Part shown: positions 3,318-56,655 of the stretch, piece by piece | Numbering within the stretch: position 1 is the first letter of the stretch | Layout: every line of letters begins with the position of its first letter | NCBI GenBank assembly: GCA_015258925.1 | Contig: JABZHH010000002.1 | Span: 7,775-71,774 of the forward strand | Length of the DNA: 64,000 nucleotides | Direction: 5' to 3' | Source: Atopobium sp. | GTDB lineage: Bacteria; Actinomycetota; Coriobacteriia; Coriobacteriales; Atopobiaceae | Position numbers and translations under genes: made by a program | The notes under the pieces: model-generated | What the model was told of the DNA's origin: nothing | What the model saw: only the letters and a program-made list of their open reading frames with translations | Databases searched by the model: none

Positions 3318-4337
3318 GTGACGTCACTGAATACAAAAGTCAGTCGTCCAGAGTTTGACGAGGTTATAGCTCTGATTGAGCAGGCCTCGTCAATCGTTGT
3401 TTGCGCACATACTTCTCCTGATGGAGATGCGATTGGCTCTGGATTAGCACTTTCTTCCATTATTCAGAGAAGATGGCCTAGCAAAACTGTCACCAATCTT
3501 TTGGCAGATGCTGATGGAGAAGTACCACGTATTTACAAGTTTCTTGATGGTACTGAGAGCTTTGTCCCTGCAAATAAGTACGAGGGAACTCCAGATCTTT
3601 TTATCTGCGTAGATCTTTCTACTGCAGGTCGTTTGGCTGATGCAAAAGCGCTGATGGAGCGCTCTAAGACGGTAGCAGTGCTTGACCATCACCCTTATAA
3701 CAACGTGTATTGGAATGCAGGGCTTGTGCGTCCTGATGCAGCAGCAACTGGCGTCATTATCACCGAGTTTGCCTGTCATTTAGGTGCAGAACTTATTCCA
3801 TCTGAGGCACAATGCCTTATGTGTGCGCTGGTAACTGATACTGGTCGTTTCCAGTACCAAAACGCTGACGGCGAGGCTTTTGAGGTAGCAAGTTTGCTGG
3901 TAGAAGCAGGTGCTTCTCCATCTCAGATTGCGCTTCATGTCTACCAGAGTGATCGCTTGGCCTATCTTCATCTTGCCGCAAAGGTTATGGGTCGTATTCT
4001 CACCTTTGGTGAGGGTCGCGTTGCCTACAGCTACGTTACTACTGCAGATCTTTCTGCATCAGGTGTTCCTCTAGCAGAGATGGATGGCCTGGTAGATATT
4101 GTGCGCTGTGTTGAGGGAACAGAAATCGCACTCTTCCTTAAAGAGGTTGATGGCGGCAAAGTTCGCGGCAACCTGCGTTCAAAATCAGAGCTTGATATTT
4201 CTGGCGTAGCTCGTCAAATGGGTGGTGGTGGACACACTGCTGCTGCAGGTTTTACCGCTGAAGGCACCATTGACGATGTGTTTACCCAGATAGTCCCTCT
4301 GCTCATCGATCTTCTCGCCCTTGACAAGGAGTCATAG
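3318..4337 (+). CDS. nrnA: DHH/DHHA1 phosphoesterase (NrnA-like oligoribonuclease/pAp phosphatase)
   Basis: HTSPDGDAIGS, LDHH, DTGRF and GGGGH..AAG motifs; typical position between rbfA and truB. Confidence 0.9.
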   Translation: MTSLNTKVSRPEFDEVIALIEQASSIVVCAHTSPDGDAIGSGLALSSIIQRRWPSKTVTNLLADADGEVPRIYKFLDGTESFVPANKYEGTPDLFICVDLSTAGRLADAKALMERSKTVAVLDHHPYNNVYWNAGLVRPDAAATGVIITEFACHLGAELIPSEAQCLMCALVTDTGRFQYQNADGEAFEVASLLVEAGASPSQIALHVYQSDRLAYLHLAAKVMGRILTFGEGRVAYSYVTTADLSASGVPLAEMDGLVDIVRCVEGTEIALFLKEVDGGKVRGNLRSKSELDISGVARQMGGGGHTAAAGFTAEGTIDDVFTQIVPLLIDLLALDKES

Positions 4338-5279
4338 GTGAAGCGAGGAGCTAGTGGAATTAACGCACTTATTGCTGTTGACAAACCGCTTGGGCTGACC
4401 AGCCATGACGTGGTTTCTCGTGTTCGCCGTGCATTTGGCGAGAAACGCGTGGGGCATGCAGGCACTTTGGATCCTAATGCAAGTGGCGTGTTGGTAGTGG
4501 GCATTGGACTTGCTACAAAGCTGTTGGGCCTCCTGACGCTGGACCGAAAGGGGTATGTGGCCGATATCTCGTTTGGGGCTCGTACCTCAACCGATGATGC
4601 AGACGGTCAGGTCGTAGCCACTGCTGCTGTCCCAGAAAATCTGTGCGATGAAGAGTTTGCTCGCGCTGCATGCGCAAAGCTGGTGGGTACGGTAGACCAG
4701 CTGCCACCAGCGGTTTCCGCAATCTCTGTTGATGGCAAACGTGCCTATCAGCTTGTTCGTGAAGGTAAGACGCCAGAGCTTGCGGCTCGTAGAGTCTCTA
4801 TTTACGATGCTACGCTTTTGGCGGTGCGCAAACCTTCTACTACGGATGAATCACTGGTGTGGACGGTTGCTTTTGATGTTTCTAAAGGCACCTACATCAG
4901 AAGCATTGCTCGAGACCTGGGTCAATCTCTTGGCACAGAGGCTCATATTAGTGGCCTAAGAAGGACGTTCTCTGGTCCCATTACGCTTGGTAGCTGCGCT
5001 TCATTAGAAGAGCTTGAACAAAGCCCAGCTCAAGTGCTTGAAGCAAAACGCCTTAATCCAACTGAGGTTCTTGGTTATCCTGTGCATAGGCTGACTGGAG
5101 CAGAATACAAATGTGTTGAGGTTGGAAAGCGTTTTGGTATTCCAGAAGATCTTTCTGAGGTTACTCATAACTCGCTGGTCAGCCTTGTGTGGAATGATGC
5201 TCTTGTGGGAATTTGGACAAGGCAAGGTTCCTGTCTAGTCTGCCAGACCAACTTCTCTCAAGGTATTTTGTGTAAGTAA
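4338..5279 (+). CDS. truB: tRNA pseudouridine(55) synthase
   Basis: DKPLGLTSHDVV, GHAGTLDP and SKGTYIRS motifs. Confidence 0.97.
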   Translation: MKRGASGINALIAVDKPLGLTSHDVVSRVRRAFGEKRVGHAGTLDPNASGVLVVGIGLATKLLGLLTLDRKGYVADISFGARTSTDDADGQVVATAAVPENLCDEEFARAACAKLVGTVDQLPPAVSAISVDGKRAYQLVREGKTPELAARRVSIYDATLLAVRKPSTTDESLVWTVAFDVSKGTYIRSIARDLGQSLGTEAHISGLRRTFSGPITLGSCASLEELEQSPAQVLEAKRLNPTEVLGYPVHRLTGAEYKCVEVGKRFGIPEDLSEVTHNSLVSLVWNDALVGIWTRQGSCLVCQTNFSQGILCK

Positions 5280-5287
5280 GGACGCAC

Positions 5288-6325
5288 GTGAACAAGGTAG
5301 AGCGCATAGTACAATCCGTTTTGTATGGAAGTGAGTTGCCGGCTCCACGTGAGCTTGGTGATGCTGACTTCTATACACTGCGTTCTGACTGCTACAGGCA
5401 GCCTTGCGTGTGCGTGCTTGGTGTCTTTGACGGACTTCATGAGGGCCACCAAGGGCTTCTCGCTAGCGCAAAAAAGGACGCCGAAGCTCGCAATATACCA
5501 CTTGTTGCTGTGACGTTTTTACCAGACCCTGTTGAGGTGCTGTTTGACGGATCTCCTCGGCGATTGCTCTCGGGAGAAGATAGACTTCGTGCACTTGCCG
5601 CATGGGGAGTGGATGGCATCTTGGTGCACCACTTTACCCGCGAGTTTGCGGCATTGAGCGCTACGCAATACGTTGAGGGTAAGTTGCTTCCGAGTGTTTC
5701 GGCCGTATCCGTTCATGTGGGTTCTGACTTTGGCCTGGGCGCACAAGGAGCTGAAGGAAGCGCGTTGCTCACCTCGCTTGGGCATAAGCATGGCTTTGAA
5801 GTTCACGCCCATGAGCTCTTTTGCTCAGGTGGACAGAAAATCTCTGCAACTCGTATTAGGGATTTGCTTGAGCAGGGTAAAGTTGAGGAAGCGGCAAGTC
5901 TGTTGGGCCGCTGGCACTTTGTGGGTGGCGTGGTTAAGCACGGCCGAGGCCAAGGTACTGGTTTTGGCTTTCCAACTGCAAATGTTTCGCTCGACCTGCG
6001 TGATTGCATTCCTCAAGATGGCGTGTATGCGTGCTATGTGGTTCATGGCGCAACAGCATGGCCCGCTGCGGTTAATGTGGGAAAAGCTCCGTCATTTCAG
6101 TCTCAAACAGGACCTTTACTTGAAGCTAACCTCCTAGGTTTTAGCGGCAACTTATATGACTCGCAGGTTCAAACGGTATTTGTGAAGAGACTGAGGGAAT
6201 CTAAAAAATTTGATTCGCTTGAAGAGCTCAAGCGTGCCGTTCGTGGAAATATAGATTGGGTAGCCCAGAATCTGGGTACGACTTCATATAACTTAGGAAG
6301 CGGGGAGGTGGAAGATGATAACTGA
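5288..6325 (+). CDS. ribF: Bifunctional riboflavin kinase/FAD synthetase
   Basis: GVFDGLHEGHQ, ISATRIR and GFPTAN motifs. Confidence 0.95.
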   Translation: MNKVERIVQSVLYGSELPAPRELGDADFYTLRSDCYRQPCVCVLGVFDGLHEGHQGLLASAKKDAEARNIPLVAVTFLPDPVEVLFDGSPRRLLSGEDRLRALAAWGVDGILVHHFTREFAALSATQYVEGKLLPSVSAVSVHVGSDFGLGAQGAEGSALLTSLGHKHGFEVHAHELFCSGGQKISATRIRDLLEQGKVEEAASLLGRWHFVGGVVKHGRGQGTGFGFPTANVSLDLRDCIPQDGVYACYVVHGATAWPAAVNVGKAPSFQSQTGPLLEANLLGFSGNLYDSQVQTVFVKRLRESKKFDSLEELKRAVRGNIDWVAQNLGTTSYNLGSGEVEDDN

Positions 6326-8297
6326 CGAAGATAAAGAGCGCGTAAGACAAGCCACAGATTTTGTCACGCTTGTTTCCGAGACAGTTGAGCTAAAACCCCG
6401 AGGTCAGGACTATTGGGGATGCTGTCCTTTCCACCAAGAAAAAAGCCCTTCATTCAAGATAAATCCTTCTACGGGTCTTTGGCACTGCTTTGGCGCTTGC
6501 TCCGAAGGCGGAGACGTCTTTAGCTATGTCATGAAGCGAGAAAATCTAGATTTTCCTGACGCTATCAGATATCTTGCCGATAAAGCTGGAATTACCCTTT
6601 CAGAAGAAGCTCATGTTTCTAAGGGTCCCCGCAAGAATCGCTTAATTGAGTGTTTGACCGAGGCCGAGAATTACTTCCACTCCATGCTTATGCGCGGAAG
6701 GGGAGAAGGTCCTGAGGCGGCGCGTGCATATCTCTCTGGTCGCGGATTTGGAGCGGCTGTCTGCAAGCGCTGGAAGCTGGGATATGCACCTGGCAGAGGC
6801 GCGCTTGTAGCGCACCTGCGTAAATGTGGCTATACCACGCAAGAGATGATTGCTGCAAACCTTGCCGTTGAGCGTAACGGTCGCATCAGTGACTGGTTCT
6901 ATGATCGAGTGATGTTTCCTATTCATGATGAGCAGGGAAGAACTATTGCTTTTGGCGGGCGAATTACTAAAAAGGTAGAAAACGCTCCTAAGTACCTTAA
7001 TACCAGAGACACTTCTGTCTTTAATAAAGGTAAGCACCTCTTTGCCTACGATGTTGCAAAAGAGACTATTGCTGCCCAGTCCGAAGCCATTATTTGTGAG
7101 GGTTACACTGATGTTATTGCCATGCATGAGGCTGGTTTTACCAACACTGTGGCAGCTCTAGGTACCGCATTCACGTCTGAACACGTCAAACTCATCGATC
7201 GCCAGCGTGCGCGTAAAATTATTTGCATGTTTGATGGTGATGCAGCGGGTCAACACGCCGCAGCACGTGCTATTAAATTTATCGATAAAACAACCGCTGC
7301 GTTTCTTTGTGTTGTTTTGCCAAATAACCAGGACCCCATGGAGTTTCTCGCCGAATCAGGTGCAGATAAGCTACGTCCTATCTTAGATGCAGCTCGTCCG
7401 CTTATGGACTTTGTCTTTGATGCCACAACCGCGCAGTTTGACTTATCCGTGCCCGGTGGCCGAGTCAAGGCGCTTGAAGCTTTAGCATCCTTATTGGCTC
7501 CGCTCAAGACATCAGTGCTGCTGAGCGAGTATGCACTTCGTGTGTCCGATCTGCTTCATATTGATGTTGAGGAAGCAAAGCGCGCAATTAAAGCCGCACC
7601 TATTCAAGATGATACGTTGGATACGCGTACTTCAAAGGCAGCGCGCAAACAGCCTCAGAAGAGTGCGGCCAACTCTTCGTACAACTCAACTTCCAAGACT
7701 TCAACGTATACTGACGGTCCTTCATACGATGATGTCCCACCGTATGATGAGGTTCCATCATATGACGATCCATCTTCGTATGGTGTTCCTGTCGACGCTT
7801 ATGTATCGCACGGTTCACAGGGGCTTTCCGCAGAAGACCGCAGACAGGTCAACTCAGAACTTGAGCTTTTAAGCGCTATGGCAACAAATCTGTCCTTGGT
7901 GCGAGAGTATCAAGATCGTATTGCAGACTTTGTATGGGCTGATGCTCGCCACCAAACTATGGCATGGGCAATGCTTGCTACTCCAGAGGGAGCTACACCA
8001 GCGCGGGTAGTTGCTGCAGCTGCGGCTGTCGAACCAAATGCGGCAGCTATTCTTTCGTCTGGCCGCGTGATATCTGAGGGCAATTCCGATACACGCCGCT
8101 CACTTGAGTTTATTGTTGATACTGTTGACTACTATTCGGTGCAGCGCAAATTGCGAGAAATTCGTTCTAATTTACGCTCCAGTTCTTATGCAGGGGAGTC
8201 TTCTGACGGAACTCTGGCAGAAGAGCAGCTTGCCGCCGCACAAGCACTTCAGACACGAGCGTTGGAGTTAGGTAAGAGGCTTACTTCAGGGCAATAA
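6315..8297 (+). CDS. dnaG: DNA primase
   Basis: CPFH..C..C zinc ribbon, PKYLN, EGYTDV and TOPRIM FDGDAAG; upstream of rpoD. Confidence 0.97.
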   Translation: MITDEDKERVRQATDFVTLVSETVELKPRGQDYWGCCPFHQEKSPSFKINPSTGLWHCFGACSEGGDVFSYVMKRENLDFPDAIRYLADKAGITLSEEAHVSKGPRKNRLIECLTEAENYFHSMLMRGRGEGPEAARAYLSGRGFGAAVCKRWKLGYAPGRGALVAHLRKCGYTTQEMIAANLAVERNGRISDWFYDRVMFPIHDEQGRTIAFGGRITKKVENAPKYLNTRDTSVFNKGKHLFAYDVAKETIAAQSEAIICEGYTDVIAMHEAGFTNTVAALGTAFTSEHVKLIDRQRARKIICMFDGDAAGQHAAARAIKFIDKTTAAFLCVVLPNNQDPMEFLAESGADKLRPILDAARPLMDFVFDATTAQFDLSVPGGRVKALEALASLLAPLKTSVLLSEYALRVSDLLHIDVEEAKRAIKAAPIQDDTLDTRTSKAARKQPQKSAANSSYNSTSKTSTYTDGPSYDDVPPYDEVPSYDDPSSYGVPVDAYVSHGSQGLSAEDRRQVNSELELLSAMATNLSLVREYQDRIADFVWADARHQTMAWAMLATPEGATPARVVAAAAAVEPNAAAILSSGRVISEGNSDTRRSLEFIVDTVDYYSVQRKLREIRSNLRSSSYAGESSDGTLAEEQLAAAQALQTRALELGKRLTSGQ

Positions 8298-8417
8298 AAA
8301 TACTCATTTTATGAGGATGCTACTCATCTAATTTTTTATAAATTAAAATGAGTAGTTTGATTAGGTAGAGAAACTTTTGGGTATAAAGATTTGCGCTAAT
8401 CTATCGAAAGGATATTT

Positions 8418-9785
8418 GTGGCTGCAAAAAAGGCAAATGACGAGGTCAAACTCTCAGATGAGCTTACTAAAATTGTTGATGATCTGGTAAGTTCTTCAAA
8501 GTCTAACGGTAGTATCAGCGAAGACGATATTCAGGTTGCCATTCGTGACGTTGACGTTAACGATGATGAGCTTTCTGACCTGTATGATTCGCTGCGCGTT
8601 AAAGGTGTTGAGATTACTACCGCATCTGAAGCAACCGTTTCTTTCGCCATTGAAGATGACGCCGTAGAAGACGATTTTTCATCCGATGATGACTTGGATG
8701 ACTCTTCTGATTTTGAAGATGAAGATGATGAAGATTTTGATGCTGTAAATGAGGCGCGCGAGGTTAAAGAGGCTCTCCGCTCTGTTTCTAAGGCAAAAGT
8801 CTCCAAGCCAAAACGTTCTTCTCGCGCTCGTGCTCGCCGTTCAGACACCACTACGGTTATGCTTACCGGCGATCCTGTCCGCATGTATCTTAAAGAGATT
8901 GGTAAGGTTGACCTGCTTACTGCATCAGAAGAGGTTCACCTTGCTATGAAGATTGAGGCAGGTACTGCAGCTTCTCAGAAGCTGGAGGATTTTGAGGATG
9001 GCCTCATCGAGCTCAACCGTGCAGAGCAGCGCCGCCTTATGCGTATTGAGTCCGTAGGACTTGACGCTAAGCAGCAGCTTATCTCTGCAAACCTTCGTCT
9101 TGTCGTCTCGATTGCAAAGCGCTATGTTGGCCGTGGCATGCTGTTCCTCGATCTTATCCAGGAAGGTAACCTGGGCCTTATTCGTGCTGTCGAGAAATTC
9201 GACTACACCAAGGGCTTTAAGTTCTCAACATATGCTACCTGGTGGATTCGTCAGGCAATTACCCGTGCTATTGCAGACCAGGCACGTACCATTCGTATTC
9301 CTGTCCACATGGTAGAGACCATCAATAAGCTCATCCGTGTTCAGCGTCAGCTTCTGCAAGATCTTGGTAGAGATCCTACCCCAGAAGAGATTGGCGCAGA
9401 AATGGGTATGTCTCCTGATCGCGTTCGCGAAATCCAGAAGATTAGCCAGGAGCCTGTCTCTCTTGAGACGCCTATTGGTGAAGAAGAAGATTCCCAGCTT
9501 GGAGACTTTATTGAGGATTCTTCAGCTGTTGCTCCACCAGATGCAGCTTCTGATTCAATGCTTCGTGAGCAGCTTGAGCAGGTTCTTGACGGCCTTGCTG
9601 ATCGTGAGCGTAAGGTTATTAAGTTCCGCTTTGGTCTTGAGGATGGCCACCCTCGCACCCTTGAAGAGGTAGGCAAGGAGTTTGGAGTTACGCGCGAGCG
9701 TATTCGCCAGATTGAGTCCAAGACCTTGGCAAAGCTTCGTCATCCTTCTAGGTCCGGCCGTCTTAAGGACTATATGGAGGAGTAG
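8418..9785 (+). CDS. rpoD: RNA polymerase principal sigma factor
   Basis: [37 protein letters not shown] and region-4 TRERIRQIE. Confidence 0.98.
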
Positions 9786-9851
9786 CTTCTTGGTTTAGGT
9801 ATGCAAGAGATTGTGCAAGAAGAATTTGACTAAATTTTTTCTAAATAATGC

Positions 9852-9880
9852 TTGCATGGTTTGGAATGTCTCTCTATACT
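9852..9880 (+). promoter_or_regulatory. Sigma70-type promoter of tRNA-Asn
   Basis: TTGCAT-N17-TATACT just upstream of the tRNA. Confidence 0.7.
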
Positions 9881-9906
9881 TAAACACCGCTGAGAAGCAC
9901 ACATAT

Positions 9907-9981
9907 TCCCCGATGGCGCAGCGGTAGCGCAGCTGACTGTTAATCAGCGTGTCGCAGGTTCAAATCCTGCTCGGGGAGCCA
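9907..9981 (+). tRNA. tRNA-Asn(GTT)
   Basis: Acceptor stem TCCCCGA/TCGGGGA, anticodon arm CTGA-ctGTTaa-TCAG, T-loop GTTCAAATC, encoded CCA. Confidence 0.97.
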
Positions 9982-9990
9982 GAATTTTCA

Positions 9991-10017
9991 AGACCAGGCA
10001 ATGCCTGGTCTTTTTTT
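9991..10017 (+). terminator. Rho-independent terminator after the tRNA
   Basis: AGACCAGGCA/TGCCTGGTCT hairpin followed by a T-run. Confidence 0.85.
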
Positions 10018-10230
10018 GTAAGAAAAGCTGTCCTGCTTTTCTCGCATTAGGCAGATTTTTATTCACAGATTTGAAGCGGACGATTTTCTCGATAACTTGG
10101 CCATTTGACCGCTTTTTCTTTATTTATCCTCAAAAACTTCAAAATTGATACCGTAAAAGGTACAAAACATAACGCTTACGGTATTTCTACAACCGTTGAG
10201 CGACATCTCACAAAGAGCTGTGATGAGATT

Positions 10231-10245
10231 TGTTAACGTACTCAT
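10231..10245. promoter_or_regulatory. Putative LacI-family (GalR-like) operator upstream of mglB
   Basis: TGTTAACGTACTCAT; identical copy at 19458-19472 and a 1-mismatch inverted copy at 19645-19659; CG-centred pseudo-palindrome typical of LacI operators. Confidence 0.75.
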
Positions 10246-10276
10246 TAAGGTCAGTGTTATGCAAAAGGCATAACAA

Positions 10277-11578
10277 ATGAGAAAGGTCACTACTATGGAT
10301 GTGTCTCGTCGCAGTTTTCTAAAGTTCTGTGGTCTAGGCGTTCTTAGCGTTGGTGGATCTAGCGTTCTTGCAGCTTGCGCACCTAGCGAGAAAAAAGAGG
10401 AAGGCGCTAAAGGTGCAAAGGTAGAGAACAAGGATAAGCCTGTTGTCTTCTTCAACCGTCAGCCTTCTAACAGCTCAACCGGTGAGCTTGATACCAACAC
10501 CCTTAACTTCAACAAGGACACCTATTACGTTGGCTTTGATGCAGTTCAGGGCGCAGAGCTCCAGGGCCAGATGGTTCTTGATTACATCAAGGCTCACGCA
10601 GCTGAGCTTGATCGTAACAAGGATGGCATCATTGGTTACGTTCTTGCAATTGGTGACATCGGTCACAACGACTCTATCGCTCGTACTCGTGGTGTCCGTA
10701 AGGCACTTGGTACTGGTGTTGAGAAGGACGGCAAGATTATTTCTGATCCAGTAGGCACCAACACTGACGGCTCCGCATCTGTTGTTCAGGATGGTAAGCT
10801 TGAGGTTGGCGGCAAGTCCTACACCATCCGTGAGCTTGCTTCTCAGGAGATGAAGAACACCGCTGGTGCAACATGGGATGCTGCAACCGCTGGTAACGCA
10901 ATTGCTGCTTGGTCTTCTTCCTTCGGCGATCAGATTGATGTTGTTGTTTCCAACAACGACGGTATGGGTATGTCCATCTTCAACGCATGGTCAAAGGCTC
11001 AGAAGGTCCCAACCTTTGGTTACGACGCTAACTCTGACGCAGTTGCAGCTATTGCTGACGGCTATGCAGGCACCATTTCCCAGCACCCAGATGTCCAGGC
11101 TTACCTGACACTCCGTCTGCTCCGCAACGCTCTTGACGGTGTTGACATCAACACCGGCATTGAGACTGCAGACGAAGCTGGCGACAAGATTGACTCCAAG
11201 GACTACAAGTATGTTGCAGATCAGCGTTCTTACTACGCTCTCAACCTTGCAGTTACCGCTGAGAACTACAAGGACAACCTTGACGCAACCACTCCTTACA
11301 AGGATGCTTCTGCTCAGCTGAGCGCAGACAAGCACCCAGAGAAGAAGGTTTGGCTCAACACCTACAACTCTGGCGACAACTTCCTTGGTTCAACCTATGT
11401 TCCACTGCTCAAGAAGTATGCTCCACTGCTCAACCTCAACGTTGAGTACATCGCAGGCGATGGCCAGACTGAGTCCAACATTACCAACCGTCTTGGCAAC
11501 CCTGACGAGTACGATGCATTTGCATTCAACATGGTTAAGACCGACAACGGTTCTTCCTATACCCAGCTGCTTAAGTAA
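10277..11578 (+). CDS. mglB: Galactose/glucose ABC transporter substrate-binding lipoprotein, circularly permuted MglB type (start may be ATG 10295)
   Basis: PVVFFN, YYVG.D, GH.D..ART, WD, NNDGM and FG.DA motifs; twin-Arg-like SRRSFLK and lipobox LAAC. Confidence 0.85.
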   Translation: MRKVTTMDVSRRSFLKFCGLGVLSVGGSSVLAACAPSEKKEEGAKGAKVENKDKPVVFFNRQPSNSSTGELDTNTLNFNKDTYYVGFDAVQGAELQGQMVLDYIKAHAAELDRNKDGIIGYVLAIGDIGHNDSIARTRGVRKALGTGVEKDGKIISDPVGTNTDGSASVVQDGKLEVGGKSYTIRELASQEMKNTAGATWDAATAGNAIAAWSSSFGDQIDVVVSNNDGMGMSIFNAWSKAQKVPTFGYDANSDAVAAIADGYAGTISQHPDVQAYLTLRLLRNALDGVDINTGIETADEAGDKIDSKDYKYVADQRSYYALNLAVTAENYKDNLDATTPYKDASAQLSADKHPEKKVWLNTYNSGDNFLGSTYVPLLKKYAPLLNLNVEYIAGDGQTESNITNRLGNPDEYDAFAFNMVKTDNGSSYTQLLK

Positions 11579-11604
11579 TTAAGTAGTCGATAGCACGAAA
11601 CAAT

Positions 11605-11635
11605 ACCGGAGGGGAGACACCTGCTCTCCTCCGGT
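11605..11635 (+). other. Intercistronic stem-loop between mglB and mglA (mRNA stabiliser or partial terminator)
   Basis: ACCGGAGGGGAG...CTCTCCTCCGGT inverted repeat without a strong U-tail. Confidence 0.6.
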
Positions 11636-11682
11636 GTTCTCGCGAATAAGCGCAATAACTTAGCGAGATAAGGGGTGATTAC

Positions 11683-13191
11683 ATGGCAGATACAGAAAAC
11701 GATATCGTTCTAACAATTGATGGAATGAGCAAGTCCTTTGGACGTAACCGCGTTCTGGATCACATTTCAATGAACGTACGCCGTGGAACCGTTATGGGTC
11801 TTATGGGAGAGAACGGCGCAGGCAAATCTACCATGATGAAGTGCCTGTTTGGTACGTATCAAAAAGATGAAGGCAAGATATTTCTTGACGGCAAAGAGGT
11901 TAGTTTCTCTGGACCAAAAGACGCACTTGAGAATGGCGTCGCAATGGTTCACCAGGAGCTTAACCAGTGCCTTGATAGAAATGTTGTAGATAACTTGTTC
12001 CTTGGTCGCTATCCCGTTAATGCAATGGGTGTTGTCGACGAGGGACGCATGAAAAAAGAAGCTAATGAGCTCTTCAGGCGTCTTGGTATGACTGTAGACC
12101 TGACACAGCCTATGAAGAACATGTCAGTATCTCAGCGTCAGATGTGCGAGATTGCAAAGGCAATTTCTTACAACGCTAAGATTATTGTTCTTGATGAGCC
12201 TACTTCTTCGCTTATGACTCAAGAGGTCGAGAAACTCTTTGAGATGATTCGTATGCTCAAAGAGCAGGGAATTTCTTTGGTCTACATCTCTCACAAGATG
12301 GATGAGATCTTTGAGATTTGCGACGACATTTCAGTTCTTCGTGACGGCAAGCTTGTTATGACCAAGCGCTCTGATGAGACCAACATGAATGAACTTATCT
12401 CTGCAATGGTTGGCCGCTCACTTGAAAATCGCTTCCCAGATGTTACTAACACACCTGGTAAGACGTATCTTTCTATTCAGCACCTTTCAACTAAATATGA
12501 ACCATACCTTCAGGACGTCACCTTTGATGTAAAGAAGGGTGAGATCTTTGGTCTGTATGGTCTTGTCGGCGCCGGTAGAACAGAGCTTCTTGAGACAATC
12601 TTTGGTGTAAGAACCAGAGCTGCAGGTCGTGTCTACGTCAACGGGCACCTTATGAACTTCTCGACAGCTGCAGAGGCAATGGATCACGGCTTTGCCATGA
12701 TTACCGAGGAGCGTAAAGCAAACGGCCTGTTCCTTAAGGGCGATCTGACGTTTAACACAACCATTGCAAACTTGAATCAGTACAAGTCTGGTCCAATCCT
12801 TTCTGATCCTAAGATGACTAAGGCTACCGTCAACGAGCTCAAGGTTATGAACACCAAGGCTCAGGGTCCATCAGATTTGATTTCAAGTCTTTCTGGTGGC
12901 AATCAGCAGAAGGTCATTTTTGGTAAGTGGCTCGAGCGCTATCCTCAGGTTTTCCTGATGGACGAGCCTACTCGTGGTATTGATGTTGGTGCTAAATATG
13001 AGATCTACCAGCTCATTATTGATATGGCTAAGAGCGGTACCACTATTATCGTAGTCTCTTCGGAGATGCCAGAGATTTTGGGAATTACCAACCGTATTGG
13101 CGTTATGTCCAACGGCAGGCTCTCGGGCATCGTAAATACCAACGAGACAAATCAAGAAGAACTCCTGCGCCTCAGCGCAAAGTACCTGTAG
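11683..13191 (+). CDS. mglA: Sugar ABC transporter ATP-binding protein with two nucleotide-binding domains
   Basis: GENGAGKST, LDEPT, GLVGAGRTE, LSGGNQQK and DEPTRGIDVGAK. Confidence 0.92.
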   Translation: MADTENDIVLTIDGMSKSFGRNRVLDHISMNVRRGTVMGLMGENGAGKSTMMKCLFGTYQKDEGKIFLDGKEVSFSGPKDALENGVAMVHQELNQCLDRNVVDNLFLGRYPVNAMGVVDEGRMKKEANELFRRLGMTVDLTQPMKNMSVSQRQMCEIAKAISYNAKIIVLDEPTSSLMTQEVEKLFEMIRMLKEQGISLVYISHKMDEIFEICDDISVLRDGKLVMTKRSDETNMNELISAMVGRSLENRFPDVTNTPGKTYLSIQHLSTKYEPYLQDVTFDVKKGEIFGLYGLVGAGRTELLETIFGVRTRAAGRVYVNGHLMNFSTAAEAMDHGFAMITEERKANGLFLKGDLTFNTTIANLNQYKSGPILSDPKMTKATVNELKVMNTKAQGPSDLISSLSGGNQQKVIFGKWLERYPQVFLMDEPTRGIDVGAKYEIYQLIIDMAKSGTTIIVVSSEMPEILGITNRIGVMSNGRLSGIVNTNETNQEELLRLSAKYL

Positions 13192-13197
13192 GAGAGG

Positions 13198-48814: not shown

Positions 48815-48874
48815 GGCACGCTCAAACTCAAAGGGTTTCTCGCCACGCGAGGTCTTATAAAACATGAGGTATTG

Positions 48875-48909
48875 AAGAGAGCTTCGATGCATGTCGGAGC
48901 TCTCTTGTT
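48875..48909 (+). terminator. Terminator after pnp
   Basis: AAGAGAGCTTCGA...TCGGAGCTCTCTT hairpin with a T-rich tail. Confidence 0.7.
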
Positions 48910-49063
48910 ATTCTGTTGAGATTTTGATTCTTTGGGAATATATAGCGTAATACGTGCAGATTTTTTATATAATTAAACAACATGTAGATTTTGCAAAAAG
49001 TCTTGTAGACGGCCCTTTGGGGTGGCGTCTGTTATAGAAAGTTATTGAAAGGAAAGCGTTTTA

Positions 49064-50728
49064 ATGCCTAAGAAAGACCCAGCTCTTAAAGTCATTCCTA
49101 TGGGCGGACTTGATGGCATCGGCAAGAACATGACCGTTTTTGAATACGGTAATGATATGGTGCTTGTTGATGCTGGTTTAATGTTCCCAGATGACGAACA
49201 GCCTGGTATTGACCTAGTTTTGCCAGACTACACCTATGTACTAGAAAATGAAGATAAGCTTCGCGGTATTTTGATTACCCACGGTCACGAGGATCATATT
49301 GGTGCTCTTCCGTACCTGCTTATGGATCTTACTCGTAAGGTGCCAATCTATTCCAGCAAGCTCTCGCTTGGCTTTATTGAAGGTAAGCTTGCTGAGCACA
49401 AGATTGTGGGCACCAAGCTTCGTGAGGTTACTGATGGCTCAAAGGTCCAGCTTGGTGCCTTTGACATCACGTTCTTCTCGATGACCCACTCTATTCCTGC
49501 TGCTTTTGGTATTCATATGAAGACCCCTGCAGGAACGCTTATTCACTCCGGTGACTTCAAGCTTGATCAGACTCCAATTGATGGCGTGCGTCCAAATTAT
49601 GCGGCTATCACCAAGTTTGGCTCCGAGGGCCTTGACCTGCTGTTGTCTGACTCAACCAACGCTAATCACCCTGGTATGACCCCATCCGAGGCTTCTGTTG
49701 GTGCGGCGCTTCGTCACATCATCAAGAATGCAACTGGTCGCGTCTTTGTTGCGTCGTTCTCAAGTCACATTCACCGCCTGCAGCAGGTGTGCGATGCCTC
49801 TGTTGCGGTAAAGCGTAAGGTTGTTGTTACCGGTCGCTCTATGATTACCAACACAAAGGTGGCGCGTGAGCTTGGTTACCTCAACATTGCCGATAAAGAC
49901 ATCGTTGATGCGTATGATGTTGATAAACTCGCAGATGATCGCATTGTTGTTCTGTGCACCGGTTCCCAGGGAGAGCCTCTGAGTGCTTTGGCACGCATGG
50001 CAAACGGAGAGCACAAGTCGCTTTCCATTCGTCCTCAGGACACCGTAATCATCTCTGCAACTCCTGTTCCAGGTAACGAGAAGAGCGTTCAGTCCATCAT
50101 CAACGCGCTCTCTAAGATTGGTTGCGAGATTTACGACAAGTCAAAGGCACTTGTCCACGTTTCTGGCCATGGTAGCCAGGAAGAGCTCAAGCTTATGCTT
50201 GGTATGGCTCGTCCAAAGAACTTCATGCCTGTTCATGGTGAGGCTGTTCACCTGCGTGCTCACGCAGAACTTGCTCAGCAGATGGGTGTTCCTGCAAACC
50301 GTATTTTCATTCTTGATAACGGCGACACGCTTGAGATGAGAAATGGCAAGGTTACTCGTGGTAAGACGGTTGAGTCTGGCGTAGTGTACGTTGACGGCCT
50401 CTCTGTCACCGACGCTAACCCTGTTGTTCTTCGTGACCGTCAGCGCCTTTCTCAGGACGGCATTGTTACCGCTGTGGTAACCCTTGTTGGTCGCAACCTT
50501 AAGCCTGGTGTTGTTGAGATTTCTGGCCGTGGTGTTTCATTTGCTGATGATGATGAGCTTATGAATGACGCACAGAATCTTGTGAGAAATTCAATCGAGA
50601 AGGCCTCTAAGTCCGAAGGCGCAAACATTGAAGCAATGAGAAAGAGCGTTCGTAACGCCCTTTCTAACTTCCTTTGGAGCAAAACTCGTACTCGACCAAT
50701 GGTTATTCCGGTCATTATGGAGGTATAA
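49064..50728 (+). CDS. rnj: Ribonuclease J
   Basis: GG..IGKNM, THGHEDHIG, GDFK, TGSQGEP, HVSGH and PVHGE. Confidence 0.96.
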   Translation: MPKKDPALKVIPMGGLDGIGKNMTVFEYGNDMVLVDAGLMFPDDEQPGIDLVLPDYTYVLENEDKLRGILITHGHEDHIGALPYLLMDLTRKVPIYSSKLSLGFIEGKLAEHKIVGTKLREVTDGSKVQLGAFDITFFSMTHSIPAAFGIHMKTPAGTLIHSGDFKLDQTPIDGVRPNYAAITKFGSEGLDLLLSDSTNANHPGMTPSEASVGAALRHIIKNATGRVFVASFSSHIHRLQQVCDASVAVKRKVVVTGRSMITNTKVARELGYLNIADKDIVDAYDVDKLADDRIVVLCTGSQGEPLSALARMANGEHKSLSIRPQDTVIISATPVPGNEKSVQSIINALSKIGCEIYDKSKALVHVSGHGSQEELKLMLGMARPKNFMPVHGEAVHLRAHAELAQQMGVPANRIFILDNGDTLEMRNGKVTRGKTVESGVVYVDGLSVTDANPVVLRDRQRLSQDGIVTAVVTLVGRNLKPGVVEISGRGVSFADDDELMNDAQNLVRNSIEKASKSEGANIEAMRKSVRNALSNFLWSKTRTRPMVIPVIMEV

Positions 50729-50733
50729 GCCCA

Positions 50734-53226
50734 ATGCCCTCTAAACGCACCTCAAACGCAGCAAAAAGAAATTCTAGAAACGCCGCTTCTGCCCAGGTAG
50801 TAGGCTTGAGCCCACTGCAGAATGACATCATTGGTGTTGTTCTTGCAGTGGTTGCAATTGCTCTGTTTTTGTCCATTATTGTCCCTTCTAATGCTGTTAT
50901 TACCAGCGCAATGGGTCATGGGCTCAAGCTCTGTTTTGGTACGGGAGCGCTACTTTTTCCCATTGCAGTATTTGTCTTTGCTATGACCTTCTTTATGCGT
51001 GATGATCAGGGAATCTCTACGCGTATTGCTATTGGTCTAACGCTGGACGTTCTTGCCGCCCTTGCTCTTATTTCACTTAACTTCCCAGGTGCCGAGGCTG
51101 CTCCAGATATGCTTCTGGGCACAAAAGTCCTAGAGGCTGCCGGTGGTTATGTAGGCGGCGGTATTGCTTGGGTTTTGCTGCGCTTTGTTGGCCGCGTGGT
51201 GGGCAATGTCCTTTTGGTTGGCTTTATTATTGCAGGTGTTGTTATCTGCGGCTTCTCCATTTCTGACATGGTTGAGCGCGTAAGCTTCCGCCTGGATGAA
51301 GCGCGTGAGAATCATCGCTACCGTAAAGAAGAGCGTGCTCTTGCAAAAGAAGAGGCGCTCTACGCTGCAAATGCTCCACAGCCTGCAAAGAAGCAGGGTA
51401 GACGTGGCGCAAACAACCAGTCTTCTCTCTTTGACGAGACCGGTGAAGGGGAGACCACCTATCTGGGCAATCGCAAGACTTCTGTCATTAAGCGTGACGC
51501 CCGTCTTTATGAGGAAGAAGAGGCGCAAGAGGACGCAGGTGATGCTCCTACTACGCTCATTGATAAAGCTAAGAATAAGCTGCGCTCTAAGAAGAAAGAC
51601 CAGCCAGATGATGCAGATGTCGAGAAAAACGATGTTGCTGTAGCTGATGTTGCTCCTACAACAAAACAGGCTAAACCTAAAAGTAAAGCTAAAACGACAC
51701 CAGATTTTCTCGCCACACCTGACCAGCTCAAGAGGCCAGGTGACGACGATGAGTCGTATGAGCTGCCACCATTTACCATTCTGAAGACAAACAAGAACTC
51801 GGCCACTTCTGCCGTAAGCGATGATGAGCTTGAAGCTACTGCTCAGAGACTCCAGGCTACGCTTGAGGAGTTTGGCCTCTCTAGCCAGGTAGTTGGTTGG
51901 ACTGCGGGTCCTTCTGTCACTACGTTTAAGATTTCGATGGGCGAGGGCGAGCGCGTCAACAAGATCACCAATCTTGAGGACGATATTGCGCTTTCACTTG
52001 CGGCAAAGTCTGTTCGTATTTTTGCTCCAATTCCTGGAACTTCTCTGGTTGGTATTGAGATCCCTAACGAGAAAGCCCAGGCAGTCAATTTGGCTGACGT
52101 TCTTCCGTTTGCAAAGGGTGGTCCTCTTGAGTGCGCCTTTGGTCGTGATTCTGAGGGCAAGCCAATTGTTGTTGACCTTGCAAGTCTTCCTCACTTGCTG
52201 GTAGCAGGTACCACTGGTTCTGGTAAGTCTGTCCTGCTCAACGCCATTGTCATGTCTATGCTCATGCGCGCAACTCCTGAGCAGGTCCGCCTGATTATGG
52301 TTGACCCAAAGCGCGTTGAGTTTACGGGTTACGCTGGTCTTCCTCACCTGTACGTGCCAGTTGTTACCGAGCCAAGGCAGGCCGCAAGTGCGCTTCAGTG
52401 GGGCGTCACCGAGATGGAGCGTCGCCTTAAGGTATTTGAGCACTACAAAGTACGTGACATTAAGACGTACAACAGAAATGTTGATGGCGATAAGTACGCT
52501 GATATTGAGAATCCTCCAAAGCATATGCCGTACTTTGTCATTGTCATCGACGAGCTTGCTGACCTTATGATGGTTGCTGGCAAAGACGTTGAGTCTTCCA
52601 TTGTCCGTATTGCTCAGCTTGGTCGTGCTGCAGGTATTCACCTGATTGTTGCAACGCAGCGTCCTTCTGCAGACGTCGTAACTGGTCTGATCCGTGCAAA
52701 CATCGATAACCGTGTTGCGCTCTCAGTTGATAACTCTTTGAACTCCCGCATTATTCTGGACCAAAAGGGCGCTGAGCAACTGCTGGGTAAGGGTGACATG
52801 CTGGTTAAACTTCGTGGTAAGAAGCCTAATCGCGCACAGGGTTGCTGGGTCTCTGACGAGGAGATTGAGGAGACCGTTAAGTACATCCGCACTCAGCGCG
52901 TGGCCGAATATCACGACAACATCTTGACCGTTGCAACTCCAACACAGGCCGAAGGCGCTGGTGGAGTTGGTGGCATGGCGCAGGCAGACGACCCACTTAT
53001 TTGGGAAGCTGCACGCATTATTGTGGATTCTCAGCTAGGTTCTACATCTAGTTTGCAAAGAGCACTCTCTGTTGGGTATGCTCGTGCTGGTAGAATTATG
53101 GATATGCTTGAGGCAAAGGGTGTTGTTGGCCCAGCTAACGGATCAAAACCTCGAGAAGTTCTTATCGATAAAGATGCTCTTGAAGAGCTCAAAGTTCAAG
53201 ACGCTGCCTATAGGGAGGTAGAGTAA
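50734..53226 (+). CDS. ftsK: DNA translocase FtsK
   Basis: N-terminal TM segments, AGTTGSGKS, IDELADLM, ATQRPS and gamma-domain GYARAGRIMD; start at ATG 50734 after GGAGG. Confidence 0.96.
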   Translation: MPSKRTSNAAKRNSRNAASAQVVGLSPLQNDIIGVVLAVVAIALFLSIIVPSNAVITSAMGHGLKLCFGTGALLFPIAVFVFAMTFFMRDDQGISTRIAIGLTLDVLAALALISLNFPGAEAAPDMLLGTKVLEAAGGYVGGGIAWVLLRFVGRVVGNVLLVGFIIAGVVICGFSISDMVERVSFRLDEARENHRYRKEERALAKEEALYAANAPQPAKKQGRRGANNQSSLFDETGEGETTYLGNRKTSVIKRDARLYEEEEAQEDAGDAPTTLIDKAKNKLRSKKKDQPDDADVEKNDVAVADVAPTTKQAKPKSKAKTTPDFLATPDQLKRPGDDDESYELPPFTILKTNKNSATSAVSDDELEATAQRLQATLEEFGLSSQVVGWTAGPSVTTFKISMGEGERVNKITNLEDDIALSLAAKSVRIFAPIPGTSLVGIEIPNEKAQAVNLADVLPFAKGGPLECAFGRDSEGKPIVVDLASLPHLLVAGTTGSGKSVLLNAIVMSMLMRATPEQVRLIMVDPKRVEFTGYAGLPHLYVPVVTEPRQAASALQWGVTEMERRLKVFEHYKVRDIKTYNRNVDGDKYADIENPPKHMPYFVIVIDELADLMMVAGKDVESSIVRIAQLGRAAGIHLIVATQRPSADVVTGLIRANIDNRVALSVDNSLNSRIILDQKGAEQLLGKGDMLVKLRGKKPNRAQGCWVSDEEIEETVKYIRTQRVAEYHDNILTVATPTQAEGAGGVGGMAQADDPLIWEAARIIVDSQLGSTSSLQRALSVGYARAGRIMDMLEAKGVVGPANGSKPREVLIDKDALEELKVQDAAYREVE

Positions 53227-53228
53227 GC

Positions 53229-54737
53229 ATGCCACGCCCTCGTTTTAGTGAGATGCTCGTAGAACGTAGACGTCAGCTCGGGCTTTCTATCACTCAAGCA
53301 TCAAAGATTCTTCGCCTCAAGGAGCAGGCACTTATTGCTTTTGAGGAAGGCGATTTTAAGAATATGCCTCAGAGCGGCTATGCTCAGGGCATGCTCTCTT
53401 CGTATGCTCGCTACCTAGGACTCAATCCGCGTGAGATTGTAGACCTCTTCCAGGAGGAGAGCTACGAGTTTGAAAACGGCACCTATTCTCATGAGCTGCG
53501 TCGTCGTACGCGCGATACTCAGTCTGGTCGTGGCATTGCTGGCTATGACGTTGTAAACGAGTCTGGTAGTAGGCCAAAGGCATACGTGCAGTACCACGGT
53601 CTTCTCCCCACATCGGGAGGACCAGCTGGCGATATGGGCGCCTTTGCAACTACGTCTGGCGTTCGCTCCAGACAAACCGGTGTTCCTCTGGGTGCTCAGG
53701 CATCTGAGGAGGATGCTGGCGGCTACTCGTATTCTCGCTATGCCACAGGTCATGCGTACAATGCCGGTATTGAAGAGGCTTCTCGTCAGAAGACTATGGC
53801 AAGCCGTACGCGCGGTGGCGTTCAGCGCAAGCGTGTAGGCATTGCAGGCGTTAGCATTCCAGCTTACAAAGACGATGTAACCAGAAGAACTGTTGCTCCA
53901 AGCGATTACACTGATGACCTTCGTTATGACAATGTAACTGCTCCTTACGAGCGCGCATCAACCATTTCTGGCCGTCGTGGATCAAGAAATATTGCGCAGG
54001 TAGATAGGCCTAATGTTCGCCGTCGCCAGCCATCTGGCGCTGCTGCTCAACAACGTCGTGCTCCTCAAAGACCAGGCGTTATGGGAGCACTTCAGAATTA
54101 CTTCTCTGACACAGGACGCACTATTGCCACTGTGTTTGCTCTTGTTGTTGTGATTATTACTGCCGTTTTGCTGTTCAGCGTTCGTTCCTGCATGACAGCT
54201 CGCACTACGCCTACTACAACAAAGACAGTAAGCGTTAATAATTCAACAACTGATTCTTCAAAGAATTCCACTACTACAAATAGCAATACGGACACCTCTA
54301 AGAAGGATTCTACTGATACTTCTAAGAGCACCACTACAACTGAGCCAAAGAAGGAAGAGACTCCTAAGCAGACTACCGTAGTGGTTACTGTTGCAGATGG
54401 TCAGACCAGCTGGGTTGAGATTACCGTTGACGGCAAGAGTGTTGAGGCTGACGCTATTACCGGCCCATGGTCTCAGACGTACACCGTCACTGACTCCATG
54501 ACTGTTCTTGCAGGTACTCCTGGTGCTGTTGCGGTAACCGTTAATGGTACTGCTAAACCATTTGACGCAAATGCTTCTGGTATTGGCACCTTGACCATTC
54601 AGGGTACTAAGCCTGCTGACGGTACTGCAGCAAATGCTTCTGGAACTCAAACAAACAGCACGTCAACAAGTACTACCGGTGGAACTTCTGGCACCACTAA
54701 CAACCAGAATTCCAACAGCAATTCAAACAATAACTAA
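53229..54737 (+). CDS. RodZ-like membrane protein (HTH, long linker, TM, C-terminal beta domain)
   Basis: N-terminal XRE HTH (Y..GML.SYARYLGL), one TM, Thr/Ser-rich linker and SWVEITVDG; ftsK-rimO-pgsA context. Confidence 0.75.
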   Translation: MPRPRFSEMLVERRRQLGLSITQASKILRLKEQALIAFEEGDFKNMPQSGYAQGMLSSYARYLGLNPREIVDLFQEESYEFENGTYSHELRRRTRDTQSGRGIAGYDVVNESGSRPKAYVQYHGLLPTSGGPAGDMGAFATTSGVRSRQTGVPLGAQASEEDAGGYSYSRYATGHAYNAGIEEASRQKTMASRTRGGVQRKRVGIAGVSIPAYKDDVTRRTVAPSDYTDDLRYDNVTAPYERASTISGRRGSRNIAQVDRPNVRRRQPSGAAAQQRRAPQRPGVMGALQNYFSDTGRTIATVFALVVVIITAVLLFSVRSCMTARTTPTTTKTVSVNNSTTDSSKNSTTTNSNTDTSKKDSTDTSKSTTTTEPKKEETPKQTTVVVTVADGQTSWVEITVDGKSVEADAITGPWSQTYTVTDSMTVLAGTPGAVAVTVNGTAKPFDANASGIGTLTIQGTKPADGTAANASGTQTNSTSTSTTGGTSGTTNNQNSNSNSNNN

Positions 54738-54745
54738 ACGCCATG

Positions 54746-54767
54746 GGGCGAGAAGTACTTCTCGCCC
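54746..54767. repeat. Hairpin made of two inverted copies of the dispersed GGCGAGAA motif
   Basis: GGGCGAGAA-gtac-TTCTCGCCC, a perfect palindrome in the intergenic gap. Confidence 0.8.
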
Positions 54768-54785
54768 TGAATATACGGAGGGGAA

Positions 54786-55283
54786 ATGGCTAAAGAATCA
54801 AGCTTTGACGTTGTGTCTGAAGTAGACATGATGGAAGTTGATAATGCATTTCAGCAGGCAGCTCGTGAACTAACTCAGCGCTATGATCTTAAGGATTCCG
54901 GTGCAACTCTTGAGCTTTCTAAGAAAGAAGGTAAGTTCACTATTGAGGCTCCAGCAGATTTTGTAGCATCTCAGGTGAGGGATGTTCTTGGATCTAAGCT
55001 GGTAAAGCGTGGAATTGACCTTACGGCTATCCGTTGGGCAGATCCAATTCCTGCAGCTGGTTCTACGGTGCGCCAGATTGGCTCTATTGTTTCTGGTATT
55101 GATCAGGAGACTGCCAAGAAGATTGCTAAAGATATTCGTGATATGAAAGTTAAGGCTAAGGCAACCGTTGAGGGCGATAAGCTGCGTGTTTCTAGTGCTT
55201 CTCGCGATGTTCTTCAGTCTGTGATTGCAAGCCTTAAGGAGAAAGACTATGGCCAGCCCCTCCAGTTCAACAACTATCGATAG
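54786..55283 (+). CDS. yajQ: YajQ-family nucleotide-binding protein
   Basis: SFDVVSEVD..EVDNA, RYD.K, GD.LRVS and LQFNNYR. Confidence 0.92.
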   Translation: MAKESSFDVVSEVDMMEVDNAFQQAARELTQRYDLKDSGATLELSKKEGKFTIEAPADFVASQVRDVLGSKLVKRGIDLTAIRWADPIPAAGSTVRQIGSIVSGIDQETAKKIAKDIRDMKVKAKATVEGDKLRVSSASRDVLQSVIASLKEKDYGQPLQFNNYR

Positions 55284-56655
55284 GGGCTACAACGTCCTAT
55301 ACATCACGTTAGGATGCGCTAAAAACGAGGTTGATACAGATCGCATGCGTGCGCGTCTTTTGGCCTCTGGTTTTGGTGAAGTTGCAGATCCAGACTCAGC
55401 AGACATTGCAATTATCAACACCTGTTCATTCTTGGCTTCAGCAACAGAGGAGTCTATTGAGACTACGCTTGAGATTGCTGAGGGCGCTTCTGAGGGAGTC
55501 CGTAAGCTACCCATTATTATGTGTGGCTGCGTTCCTTCCAGGTATGGCGCAGAGCTTAACGAGCAGCTTCCTGAAGTTGCTGCGTTTGTTCCGGCAGATC
55601 AAGAAGATGGTATTGTCAGCGTTGTTGCAGACGTTCTGAATATCCCTGAGCCTACGCAGTCAATTGTTGCTGCCCATGGAATGCTGCGCACCATTGATGG
55701 CGCCAGTGCATTTGTAAAGATTTCCGAGGGCTGTGATAGATTCTGTGCCTTCTGCGCCATTCCGTACATTCGTGGTCACTATCACTCAAGGCCTGCTGAA
55801 GAGATTCTTCAAGAGGTACATGAGCTGATGGAAGGTGGTGTTCGTGAGGTCATCCTGATTGGCCAGGACACCGGTATCTGGGGCTCGGATATGCCTGATA
55901 CTGCAGATGGCCAGACGCCAACGCTTGCTAAGCTTATGCAGCAGGTTGCTGAGGTAGTTCGTCCTTATAAGGGATGGATTCGCGTTTTGTATCTGCAGCC
56001 AGAAGGTATGACCGATGAGCTCATCAGCACTATTCGCGATACACCTGAGGTTCTTCCTTACATTGATATTCCAATTCAGCACTGCAACGAGCGCATTCTT
56101 AAGCGCATGGGTCGTTCTGGCTCTACACAGGAGCTTCGTGAGCTTTTTGATCGCCTCAGAACTGAGATTCCTGGCATGGTTCTTCGAACTACGGGAATGT
56201 GTGGCTTCCCAGGCGAGACAGATGATGAATCAGATGAGCTCTACGACTTTATTCAGGAGCAGGAGTTTGATTACACTTCCGTCTTTACCTATTCGCCAGA
56301 AGAGGGAACTCTGGGCGCAAAGATGTCTGATCAGGTTCCAGACGAGGTAAAAATTGAGCGTACTCAGCGCTTGCTTGACCTTGTAGAGCAGCTTGGCTTT
56401 GCGGCAACTGCCCGTCACGTTGGCGAGCGCTGCGAGGTCATTATCGACGGAATTGAAGAATCCGACGAAGGCACTGAGCTTATTGGCCACACGTGGTTCC
56501 AGGCTCCAGACTGTGATGGCGCTGTTCACATTGCAGAGGGAGAGGCCGCAGTCGGAGATATTGTCCTTTGTGACCTGGTAGATTCTTTCTGCTATGAAAT
56601 GATTGGCGAAATTGTAGACACTACAGACACACAGTCTGGCGAGAAAACCGTTTAG
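55249..56655 (+). CDS. rimO: Ribosomal protein S12 methylthiotransferase
   Basis: LGCAKNEVD, KISEGCDRFCAFC, R.LYLQP, YIDIPIQH and QAP..DG; AAGGAG RBS before ATG 55249, overlapping the end of yajQ. Confidence 0.93.
   Translation: MASPSSSTTIDRGYNVLYITLGCAKNEVDTDRMRARLLASGFGEVADPDSADIAIINTCSFLASATEESIETTLEIAEGASEGVRKLPIIMCGCVPSRYGAELNEQLPEVAAFVPADQEDGIVSVVADVLNIPEPTQSIVAAHGMLRTIDGASAFVKISEGCDRFCAFCAIPYIRGHYHSRPAEEILQEVHELMEGGVREVILIGQDTGIWGSDMPDTADGQTPTLAKLMQQVAEVVRPYKGWIRVLYLQPEGMTDELISTIRDTPEVLPYIDIPIQHCNERILKRMGRSGSTQELRELFDRLRTEIPGMVLRTTGMCGFPGETDDESDELYDFIQEQEFDYTSVFTYSPEEGTLGAKMSDQVPDEVKIERTQRLLDLVEQLGFAATARHVGERCEVIIDGIEESDEGTELIGHTWFQAPDCDGAVHIAEGEAAVGDIVLCDLVDSFCYEMIGEIVDTTDTQSGEKTV

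Follow-up and report, generated by a model that had tools for sequence, protein, structure and literature searches.

A stretch of 64,000 nucleotides from Atopobium sp. (assembly GCA_015258925.1, contig JABZHH010000002.1, positions 7,775 to 71,774; called the window below) was found to carry dispersed copies of a gapped, asymmetric DNA motif with the consensus tggCGAGAARNNC and the core CGAGAARNNC, as defined by flank counts. The core occurred at 1,480 sites in the 1.26 Mb of the source genome (G000; 1,257,832 bases in 124 contigs, 81% complete, GC 0.49), or 1.2 per kb. These sites were abundant, unpolarised, evenly spread, located in permissive positions and reused as terminator stems. The motif is real and apparently undescribed. 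The explanation that we rank first, at slightly less than even confidence, is that it marks self-DNA for natural transformation and is recognised within the Tad/ComEC/DprA pathway; it would then be the functional counterpart, in a Gram-positive actinobacterial family, of DNA uptake sequences (DUS) and uptake signal sequences (USS).

An earlier annotation made from the letters of the window (the sequence-only reading) had taken the 8-mer GGCGAGAA as the unit of the motif. This word was the most frequent 8-mer of G000, N runs aside, with 629 copies compared to expectations of 74 and 361 under third- and fifth-order Markov models, respectively, showing that the over-representation was genome-wide and not limited to the window. 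However, the 8-mer is merely a slice of the longer motif, since the last core C, four bases past the word, was present at 89% of 627 genomic GGCGAGAA. When the 13-mer TGGCGAGAARNNC (341 copies) was used as the anchor for flank counts, alternative bases reached at most 19 copies at any core position and 29-95 copies at the three left positions. Weak flank preferences extended from -7 to +27 (about 35 bp), for example -6 A, +10 G, +11 T, +13 G, +17 T, +19 G, +21 A and +27 T, and were frame-independent when compared with frame-matched backgrounds. The extended footprint was present at sense, antisense and intergenic sites alike and was missing from in-frame Glu-Lys controls. Flank variants differed by lineage (TGG, GGG or tgc), R being mostly G in GC-rich genera. 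Single-stranded DNA folding differed little between sites and controls (-3.5 vs -3.1 kcal/mol).

The window contained 24 copies of GGCGAGAA compared to 1.97 expected, in line with the earlier estimate of about two, and none of 100 dinucleotide shuffles reached 24. All 23 coordinates listed earlier were correct and one copy, at 63490 on the + strand, had been overlooked. Nine 10-mers TGGCGAGAAA (five +, four -) were likewise confirmed, with an expectation of 0.25 rather than about 0.1. Six of the 24 GGCGAGAA were intergenic by our own gene calls, as had been counted before, and 19 extended to the core. Of five genes thought to be exempt, recA and rny were free of core sites, whereas infB, rpoD and pnp carried them. 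The sites of the window were as follows.

1848..62671, 40 on the + strand and 33 on the - strand: 73 dispersed core sites CGAGAARNNC
1848-1857, - strand: first core site of the window, within infB
15059..15071, + strand: full 13-mer site, intergenic, between convergent mglC-like and galT genes
19551..19562, - strand: intergenic site between galM and a LacI-family regulator
20729..20741, - strand: full 13-mer site, intergenic, past the LacI-family regulator
25291..25322, no strand: inverted pair with the favoured 12 bp spacing, within a dihydroorotate dehydrogenase electron-transfer gene
48833..48845, - strand: full 13-mer site, intergenic, directly past pnp
54746..54767, no strand: intergenic inverted pair with overlapping RNNC parts (spacing -4), between a RodZ-like gene and yajQ
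62662-62671, + strand: last core site of the window
63490-63497, + strand: 24th GGCGAGAA, past the last core site and without the final core C

Codon usage did not account for these numbers. Genes of G000 were called with our own hexamer model (1,135 genes, 87% coding), so that gene-level figures are approximate. Coding sequences held 1,166 core sites, 6-fold more than the mean of 190 in 30 synonymous-codon shuffles (maximum 211); for the coding 12-mer and 13-mer the observed and shuffled counts were 335 vs 30 and 218 vs 10. The Glu-Lys frame contributed 545 of the 1,166, and all six frames were enriched 3- to 23-fold, in keeping with the earlier remark that coding copies fall in varied frames; a codon or dipeptide artefact was rejected on these counts.

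Site density was 1.8 per kb in intergenic DNA compared to 1.09 per kb in genes, and depended on the neighbouring genes: spacers of convergent gene pairs had 3.6 per kb, those of tandem pairs 2.07 and those of divergent pairs 0.95. The sixth of genes with the highest codon adaptation had 0.81 per kb, vs 1.0-1.21 in the remainder. Close +/- inverted pairs numbered 47 in G000, many of them terminator-like with T or A runs alongside, and the pair at 54746..54767 was predicted to fold as an RNA hairpin (54735-54790, -20.9 kcal/mol, z -3.5). Pair spacings peaked at -4, 0, 4 and 12. Of these, -4, 0 and 12 are expected, along with 3, when the single-site profile overlaps itself, which removes the 12 bp spacing as a sign of a dimer site; spacing 4 was not predicted. 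In 23S rRNA one site was found in 14.7 kb (five copies from four motif-rich genomes). The two largest site-free gaps of G000, C38:4466-11076 and C80:9703-15683, have atypical GC (0.62 and 0.56), carry ABC-transporter-like genes and are likely recent acquisitions; the avoidance of foreign DNA is based on these two stretches. A 17-mer scan of viral contigs gave 120 loci, and the 80 above 3 kb had a median of 0.08 further sites per kb, which is uninformative as their hosts were unidentified.

The motif had been described as non-polar, and this held when checked for skew of the Chi or KOPS (FtsK orienting polar sequence) type. In 849 kb of G000 contigs oriented by GC skew the strand ratio was 517:474 (p 0.18); it was 202:182 in 420 kb of the closed genome of a relative, G163, whose two halves held 45:38 forward 13-mers. 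GAGAAGGG was slightly skewed (50:27). Apparent gaps of 120-135 kb in G163 arose from counting one sub-word on one strand, and core density there was ordinary.

Although unpolarised, the sites were not placed independently of orientation. They were more regular than random (coefficient of variation 0.873 vs 0.947+-0.025, 0 of 300 simulations). Among pair distances of up to 5 kb, same-orientation pairs 50-1000 bp apart numbered 514 vs 719 expected (0.72), while opposite-orientation pairs were at expectation (745 vs 747, 1.00). Permutation of strand labels gave 619.5+-17 same-orientation pairs, the lowest of 1,000 permutations being 555. The deficit persisted across gene borders (0.61-0.63), ended at about 1-1.5 kb, with step and linear fits equally good, and was absent from control words and near-miss words. 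G163 showed the same spacing, but most of its sites are common with G000. In another genus (G043) the ratio was 0.87 at 50-1000 bp (P 0.057, or 0.20 by label permutation) and 0.70 at 50-700 bp, a split picked post hoc; other genera pooled in 20-kb pieces gave P 0.09. Outside the genus the effect is only suggestive, with weak support. A toy equilibrium model was run for three saturation modes: every pair class became rarer with orientation-blind saturation, same-orientation and +/- pairs became rarer with directional tracts, and per-strand saturation alone reproduced the observed pattern. Avoidance of the same orientation within about 1 kb, with none for the opposite orientation, points towards a strand- or direction-specific reader. 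The word is strand-neutral and built by point mutation, and is under a force that favours about one site per strand per kilobase; we infer that this force is biased DNA uptake or recombination.

Sites were also retained between genomes. In 305 kb aligned between G000 and G163 (88.9% identical), 554 of 661 site observations were common (84%), compared to 53-64% for six control words. Among motif-poor genomes, columns that held sites showed lower conservation (0.573 vs 0.644, p 3e-8). Columns and indels were tested at 253 sites in orthologous genes of the comEC region from 16 motif-rich genomes; indels occurred at 4.0% of these sites and at 2.6% of random places, giving no indel excess and arguing against an inserted element. 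In the comEC-region orthologues, 15 of 132 site positions were common to at least three genera. Differences at lost or gained sites were chiefly C/T and G/A changes. Sites are made and kept by point substitution at permissive protein positions.

The motif was rich in most sampled genera of Atopobiaceae and lost in several. Counts of TGGCGAGAAA were 117-244 in all 24 genomes of the same genus and 1-18 in 16 genomes of other families. Across 200 family genomes the 12-mer ranged from 4-16 (genus g34) up to 1,468 (g44), and across 260 genomes of the order the core ranged from 97-187 in g34, the fewest and under its control, to 1,452-1,912 in 19 genomes of g1 (control 312-504) and up to 3,757 in g44. 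GC-rich genomes carry a codon-driven core background, as checked via shuffles in 40 syntenic stretches. Inverted pairs numbered 10-52 in g1, 20-31 in g44 and 0-2 in 108 genomes of the class outside the family; in a scan of named genomes, among the best 80 of 117 loci, 58 were titled Atopobium, Lancefieldella, Olsenella, Thermophilibacter or Atopobiaceae. Since motif-poor genera were scattered over an 11-protein tree of 41 genomes, whose deep branches were weakly supported, the simpler interpretation is that the motif was lost repeatedly. High core counts (1,411-2,266) were also seen in scattered genomes outside the family, G032 (f9), G234 (f12), G361 (f13) and G239 (f4); G032 and G239 had the identical core with their own left flank. 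No substitute word was found in the DNA examined of the motif-poor genera g47 and g34. Genus g46 (G070, loci L200-L204) had an unrelated frequent GGGGAGTATCC-type word, possibly a repeat family (GGGGAGTA, 39 copies vs 2.4 expected in 158 kb).

The sequence-only reading had raised an uptake signal as one possibility, and this idea agreed with each genomic hallmark that could be tested; it is unproven and the receptor was not found. As far as the available text of PMC1626085, PMC7811141 and 10.1101/2025.10.24.684340 describes them, USS and DUS resemble the motif in their density of about one per kb, lack of orientation bias, more regular than random placement, preference for non-coding DNA, close inverted pairs in terminators, origin by point mutation, lineage variants, and depletion in rRNA and in constrained and foreign DNA. 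USS also have flanking segments to which the footprint of about 35 bp is comparable. In contrast, the sequence is unrelated and its core is gapped; none of its words occurs in AAGTGCGGT or GCCGTCTGAA as printed in PMC1626085. The host also differs, being a monoderm with a Tad/Flp pilus locus. Same-strand-only spacing may be a further difference. The motif is therefore at most an analogue of DUS and USS and not a member of either family. DUS and USS have a sequence-specific surface receptor, namely ComP and the predicted ComN.

Under the uptake explanation, a protein of the Tad-pilus/ComEA/ComEC/DprA pathway would bind the core and contact about 35 bp, and site-bearing DNA would be taken up or recombined more often. 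Sites would then build up by molecular drive, to a limit set by protein constraint, and the spacing suggests that the benefit would saturate per strand across about 1 kb. The word would probably be read on one imported strand or by a protein tracking in one direction, not orientation-blind on a duplex fragment.

Genes of this putative pathway were present in the window and in relatives. The relevant features of the window were as follows.

30048..30057, + strand: GTGTCAGATT box upstream of comEA, a candidate competence-regulator site, separate from the motif
30150..30902, + strand: comEA, with membrane anchor, SLBB and helix-hairpin-helix, of ordinary architecture
30844..33282, + strand: comEC, 812 aa, Competence and metallo-beta-lactamase domains, open frame
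50734..53226, + strand: ftsK, single copy
56650..62552, no strand: site-free stretch with pgsA, cinA, recA, recX and rny, the third-largest motif-free stretch of G000

All genomes searched had a match for ComEC (64 of 64), DprA (5 of 5) and the TadG-like pilin (60 of 60). A T2SSE-family ATPase was found in 4 of 5 genomes, the exception being G000, whose tad operon is truncated by the beginning of contig C44 and in which a regular expression for type IV/Flp prepilins also gave no match. In 40 genomes ComEA had no extra domain, its architecture being the same in motif-rich and motif-poor genomes. The Tad/Flp locus, at L013:5259-14766 (G010), L015 (G058) and L233-L292, encodes a TadG-like pilin of about 660-710 aa with a His/Cys cluster, single-copy in 60 of 60 genomes of the order, together with TadE-like pilins and DUF192. 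Many family genomes (L018-L057) have a TGTCAGA-type box ahead of comEA, often as repeats at intervals of about 11 bp; the box also lies upstream of the tad operon in G000 (C44 near 2258, - strand), and is a candidate competence-regulator site. Transformation of Micrococcus luteus requires a Tad locus (PMC6668835, available text). Consistent with the uptake explanation, g34, the genus with fewest sites, also showed degeneration of ComEC (577-603 aa, without the C-terminal domain) and was the only one among 61 rows to have lost the pilin His/Cys cluster.

Several observations weigh against this explanation. Its support is genomic, and the literature searched gave no demonstration of competence in this class (Coriobacteriia). 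The hallmarks are shared by any selected or driven DNA word, according to the available text of PMC1939737. Classical duplex-level uptake would not be expected to yield same-strand-only spacing, as all pair classes were depleted in the toy model. Divergence near sites was not reduced, and the recA region is among the largest site-free gaps. The genes comEA, comEC, dprA and those of the Tad pilus are intact in motif-poor genera too: in g47 and g46, where ComEC, ComEA and the Tad genes are full-length, there are only about 0.1-0.2 sites per kb. Conversely, motif counts are still moderate in G081 and G067, whose ComEC frames are short. No residue of TadG, TadE, DUF192, ComEA or ComEC tracked motif density beyond permutation or control-protein levels. 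Searches for another reader were also negative: residues of mIHF and HolA did not track motif density, the presence of PF13930 and PF02805 did not follow the motif, Atlas and PDB searches with the TadG-like pilin and AddB gave no usable match, and a synteny check on the available DNA (420 kb of 1.8 Mb) left six genes, with no evident DNA-binding protein among them.

The main rival, which we consider fairly unlikely, is a Chi-like signal: the AddAB helicase-nuclease, or another end-processing enzyme, would cease degradation on reaching its first site in the correct orientation and pass the DNA on to RecA. Like Chi, the motif is an asymmetric, over-represented word for which orientation appears to matter and which shows patchy loss across lineages, and an AddAB-type nuclease was matched in 40 of 40 genomes (C30:6736-13404 in G000). 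The deficit of same-orientation pairs alone, also across gene borders, and its reproduction by per-strand saturation alone would suit such a signal. Chi is normally leading-strand polarised (PMC8022716), whereas here the figure is 52%; the rival would explain this by ends that come from both sides, as in two-ended breaks or incoming linear DNA. The available text of the same paper reports non-polar candidate Chi motifs in 23 Vibrio species and enrichment of Chi in the core genome. Together with the orientation-specific spacing, these candidates keep a Chi-like role open, and non-polarity, which had earlier been used to set Chi aside, does not exclude it. Against it, intergenic enrichment is unlike Chi, no AddB residue followed the density of the motif (0.60 in the best column, permutation 95% level 0.66), and beyond the genus the spacing effect is merely suggestive. 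To our knowledge, a graded 35-bp footprint, lineage variants of the flanks and terminator pairs are not features of Chi. The uptake explanation and the Chi-like one share one claim, that word-bearing DNA recombines more often.

The remaining explanations fared less well. A binding site of a chromosome-organising protein, selected for regular occupancy, is distinctly unlikely. It would agree with conservation above controls, even spacing and the long footprint, and has a parallel in HIP1 of cyanobacteria, which is likewise hyper-abundant, conserved within and between genes and of unknown function, with a structural role proposed (PMC5861425, available text). However, a bound protein would be expected to space all sites and not same-orientation sites alone, density was lowest in divergent promoter regions, mIHF was near-identical in motif-rich and motif-poor genomes, several genera have lost the motif, and no terminus or origin focus was seen in the closed genome. 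HIP1 is moreover a palindrome linked to orphan methyltransferases (available text of PMC4390886), whereas the motif is asymmetric and no methyltransferase of the three families PF02384, PF01555 and PF00145 was common to five motif-rich genomes or found in G000 (81% complete). The same result, in which other modification families were not searched, speaks against a one-strand DNA modification used as a repair strand signal, or a biased repair process generating the word, either of which is improbable. A non-palindromic mark would need its own sites on each strand within repair range and would therefore match the spacing, and the C/T and G/A changes at lost or gained sites fit as well; yet MutS_I was found in none of the five family genomes searched (G000, G163, G166, G071 and G086). 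We know of no methyltransferase site with graded 35-bp flanks. Hardly credible, finally, is a translocase guide of the KOPS or SRS (SpoIIIE recognition sequence) type, a codon or dipeptide artefact, or an inserted repeat such as a repetitive extragenic palindrome (REP) or a miniature inverted-repeat transposable element (MITE). The large share of the Glu-Lys frame and the skew of GAGAAGGG would favour this group, as would GAGAAR, contained in SRS and in the Lactococcus KOPS words and present in the core. A segregation role, as raised earlier, is nevertheless unsupported in its KOPS or matS form, and as a translocase guide the motif was rejected: it is unpolarised, FtsK was found in 36 of 36 genomes, single in most, with no paralogue tied to the motif, and a separate word is polar. 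This word, AGGGGAG, was distributed 80:3 and its shorter form AGGGGA 170:19 between leading and lagging strands of the 849 kb of oriented contigs, gene-strand bias not being controlled for in these figures; the KOPS role therefore appears to be taken by another word. With regard to inserted repeats, the sites had no sequence in common beyond the weak footprint.

If the uptake explanation is correct, Gram-positive bacteria of the gut, rumen and mouth would be a further case in which recognition of self-DNA arose, using other machinery, and the motif would offer a practical handle for genetics in Atopobiaceae. Uptake sequences are named for two families alone, Neisseriaceae and Pasteurellaceae, in the available text of a 2025 survey (10.1101/2025.10.24.684340). 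A stronger form, which is possible but rather doubtful, would make the motif a third independently evolved self-DNA recognition system and the first in a monoderm, acting via the Tad pilus and ComEC, with strand-specific reading (on the imported strand or at hand-over to recombination) and a range of about 1 kb. If true, such a system would unite traits otherwise split between uptake sequences and Chi. If the motif is Chi-like instead, the recombination signal of the clade's AddAB has been named, and such signals can be unpolarised. Either explanation is directly testable, since the motif has been defined together with its range, its essential positions and the lineages that lost it naturally. 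No description of the motif, or of competence in the family, was found in the literature searched, which lay outside subscription papers and bioRxiv supplements, and none of six Coriobacteriia genus names was present in the available part of the supplements of PMC4752239.

Many contig ends of G000, including those of C22, C36, C42, C51 and C69, carry repeated sequences of two families, ACACACCTAAGTC... and AAGAAATGGGAGGCAGTTC..., which are present in dozens of copies and are probably insertion-sequence or MITE ends. A similar word lies near position 15071 of the window. By our own reading, contigs C80 and C100 carry IS200-like transposase genes.

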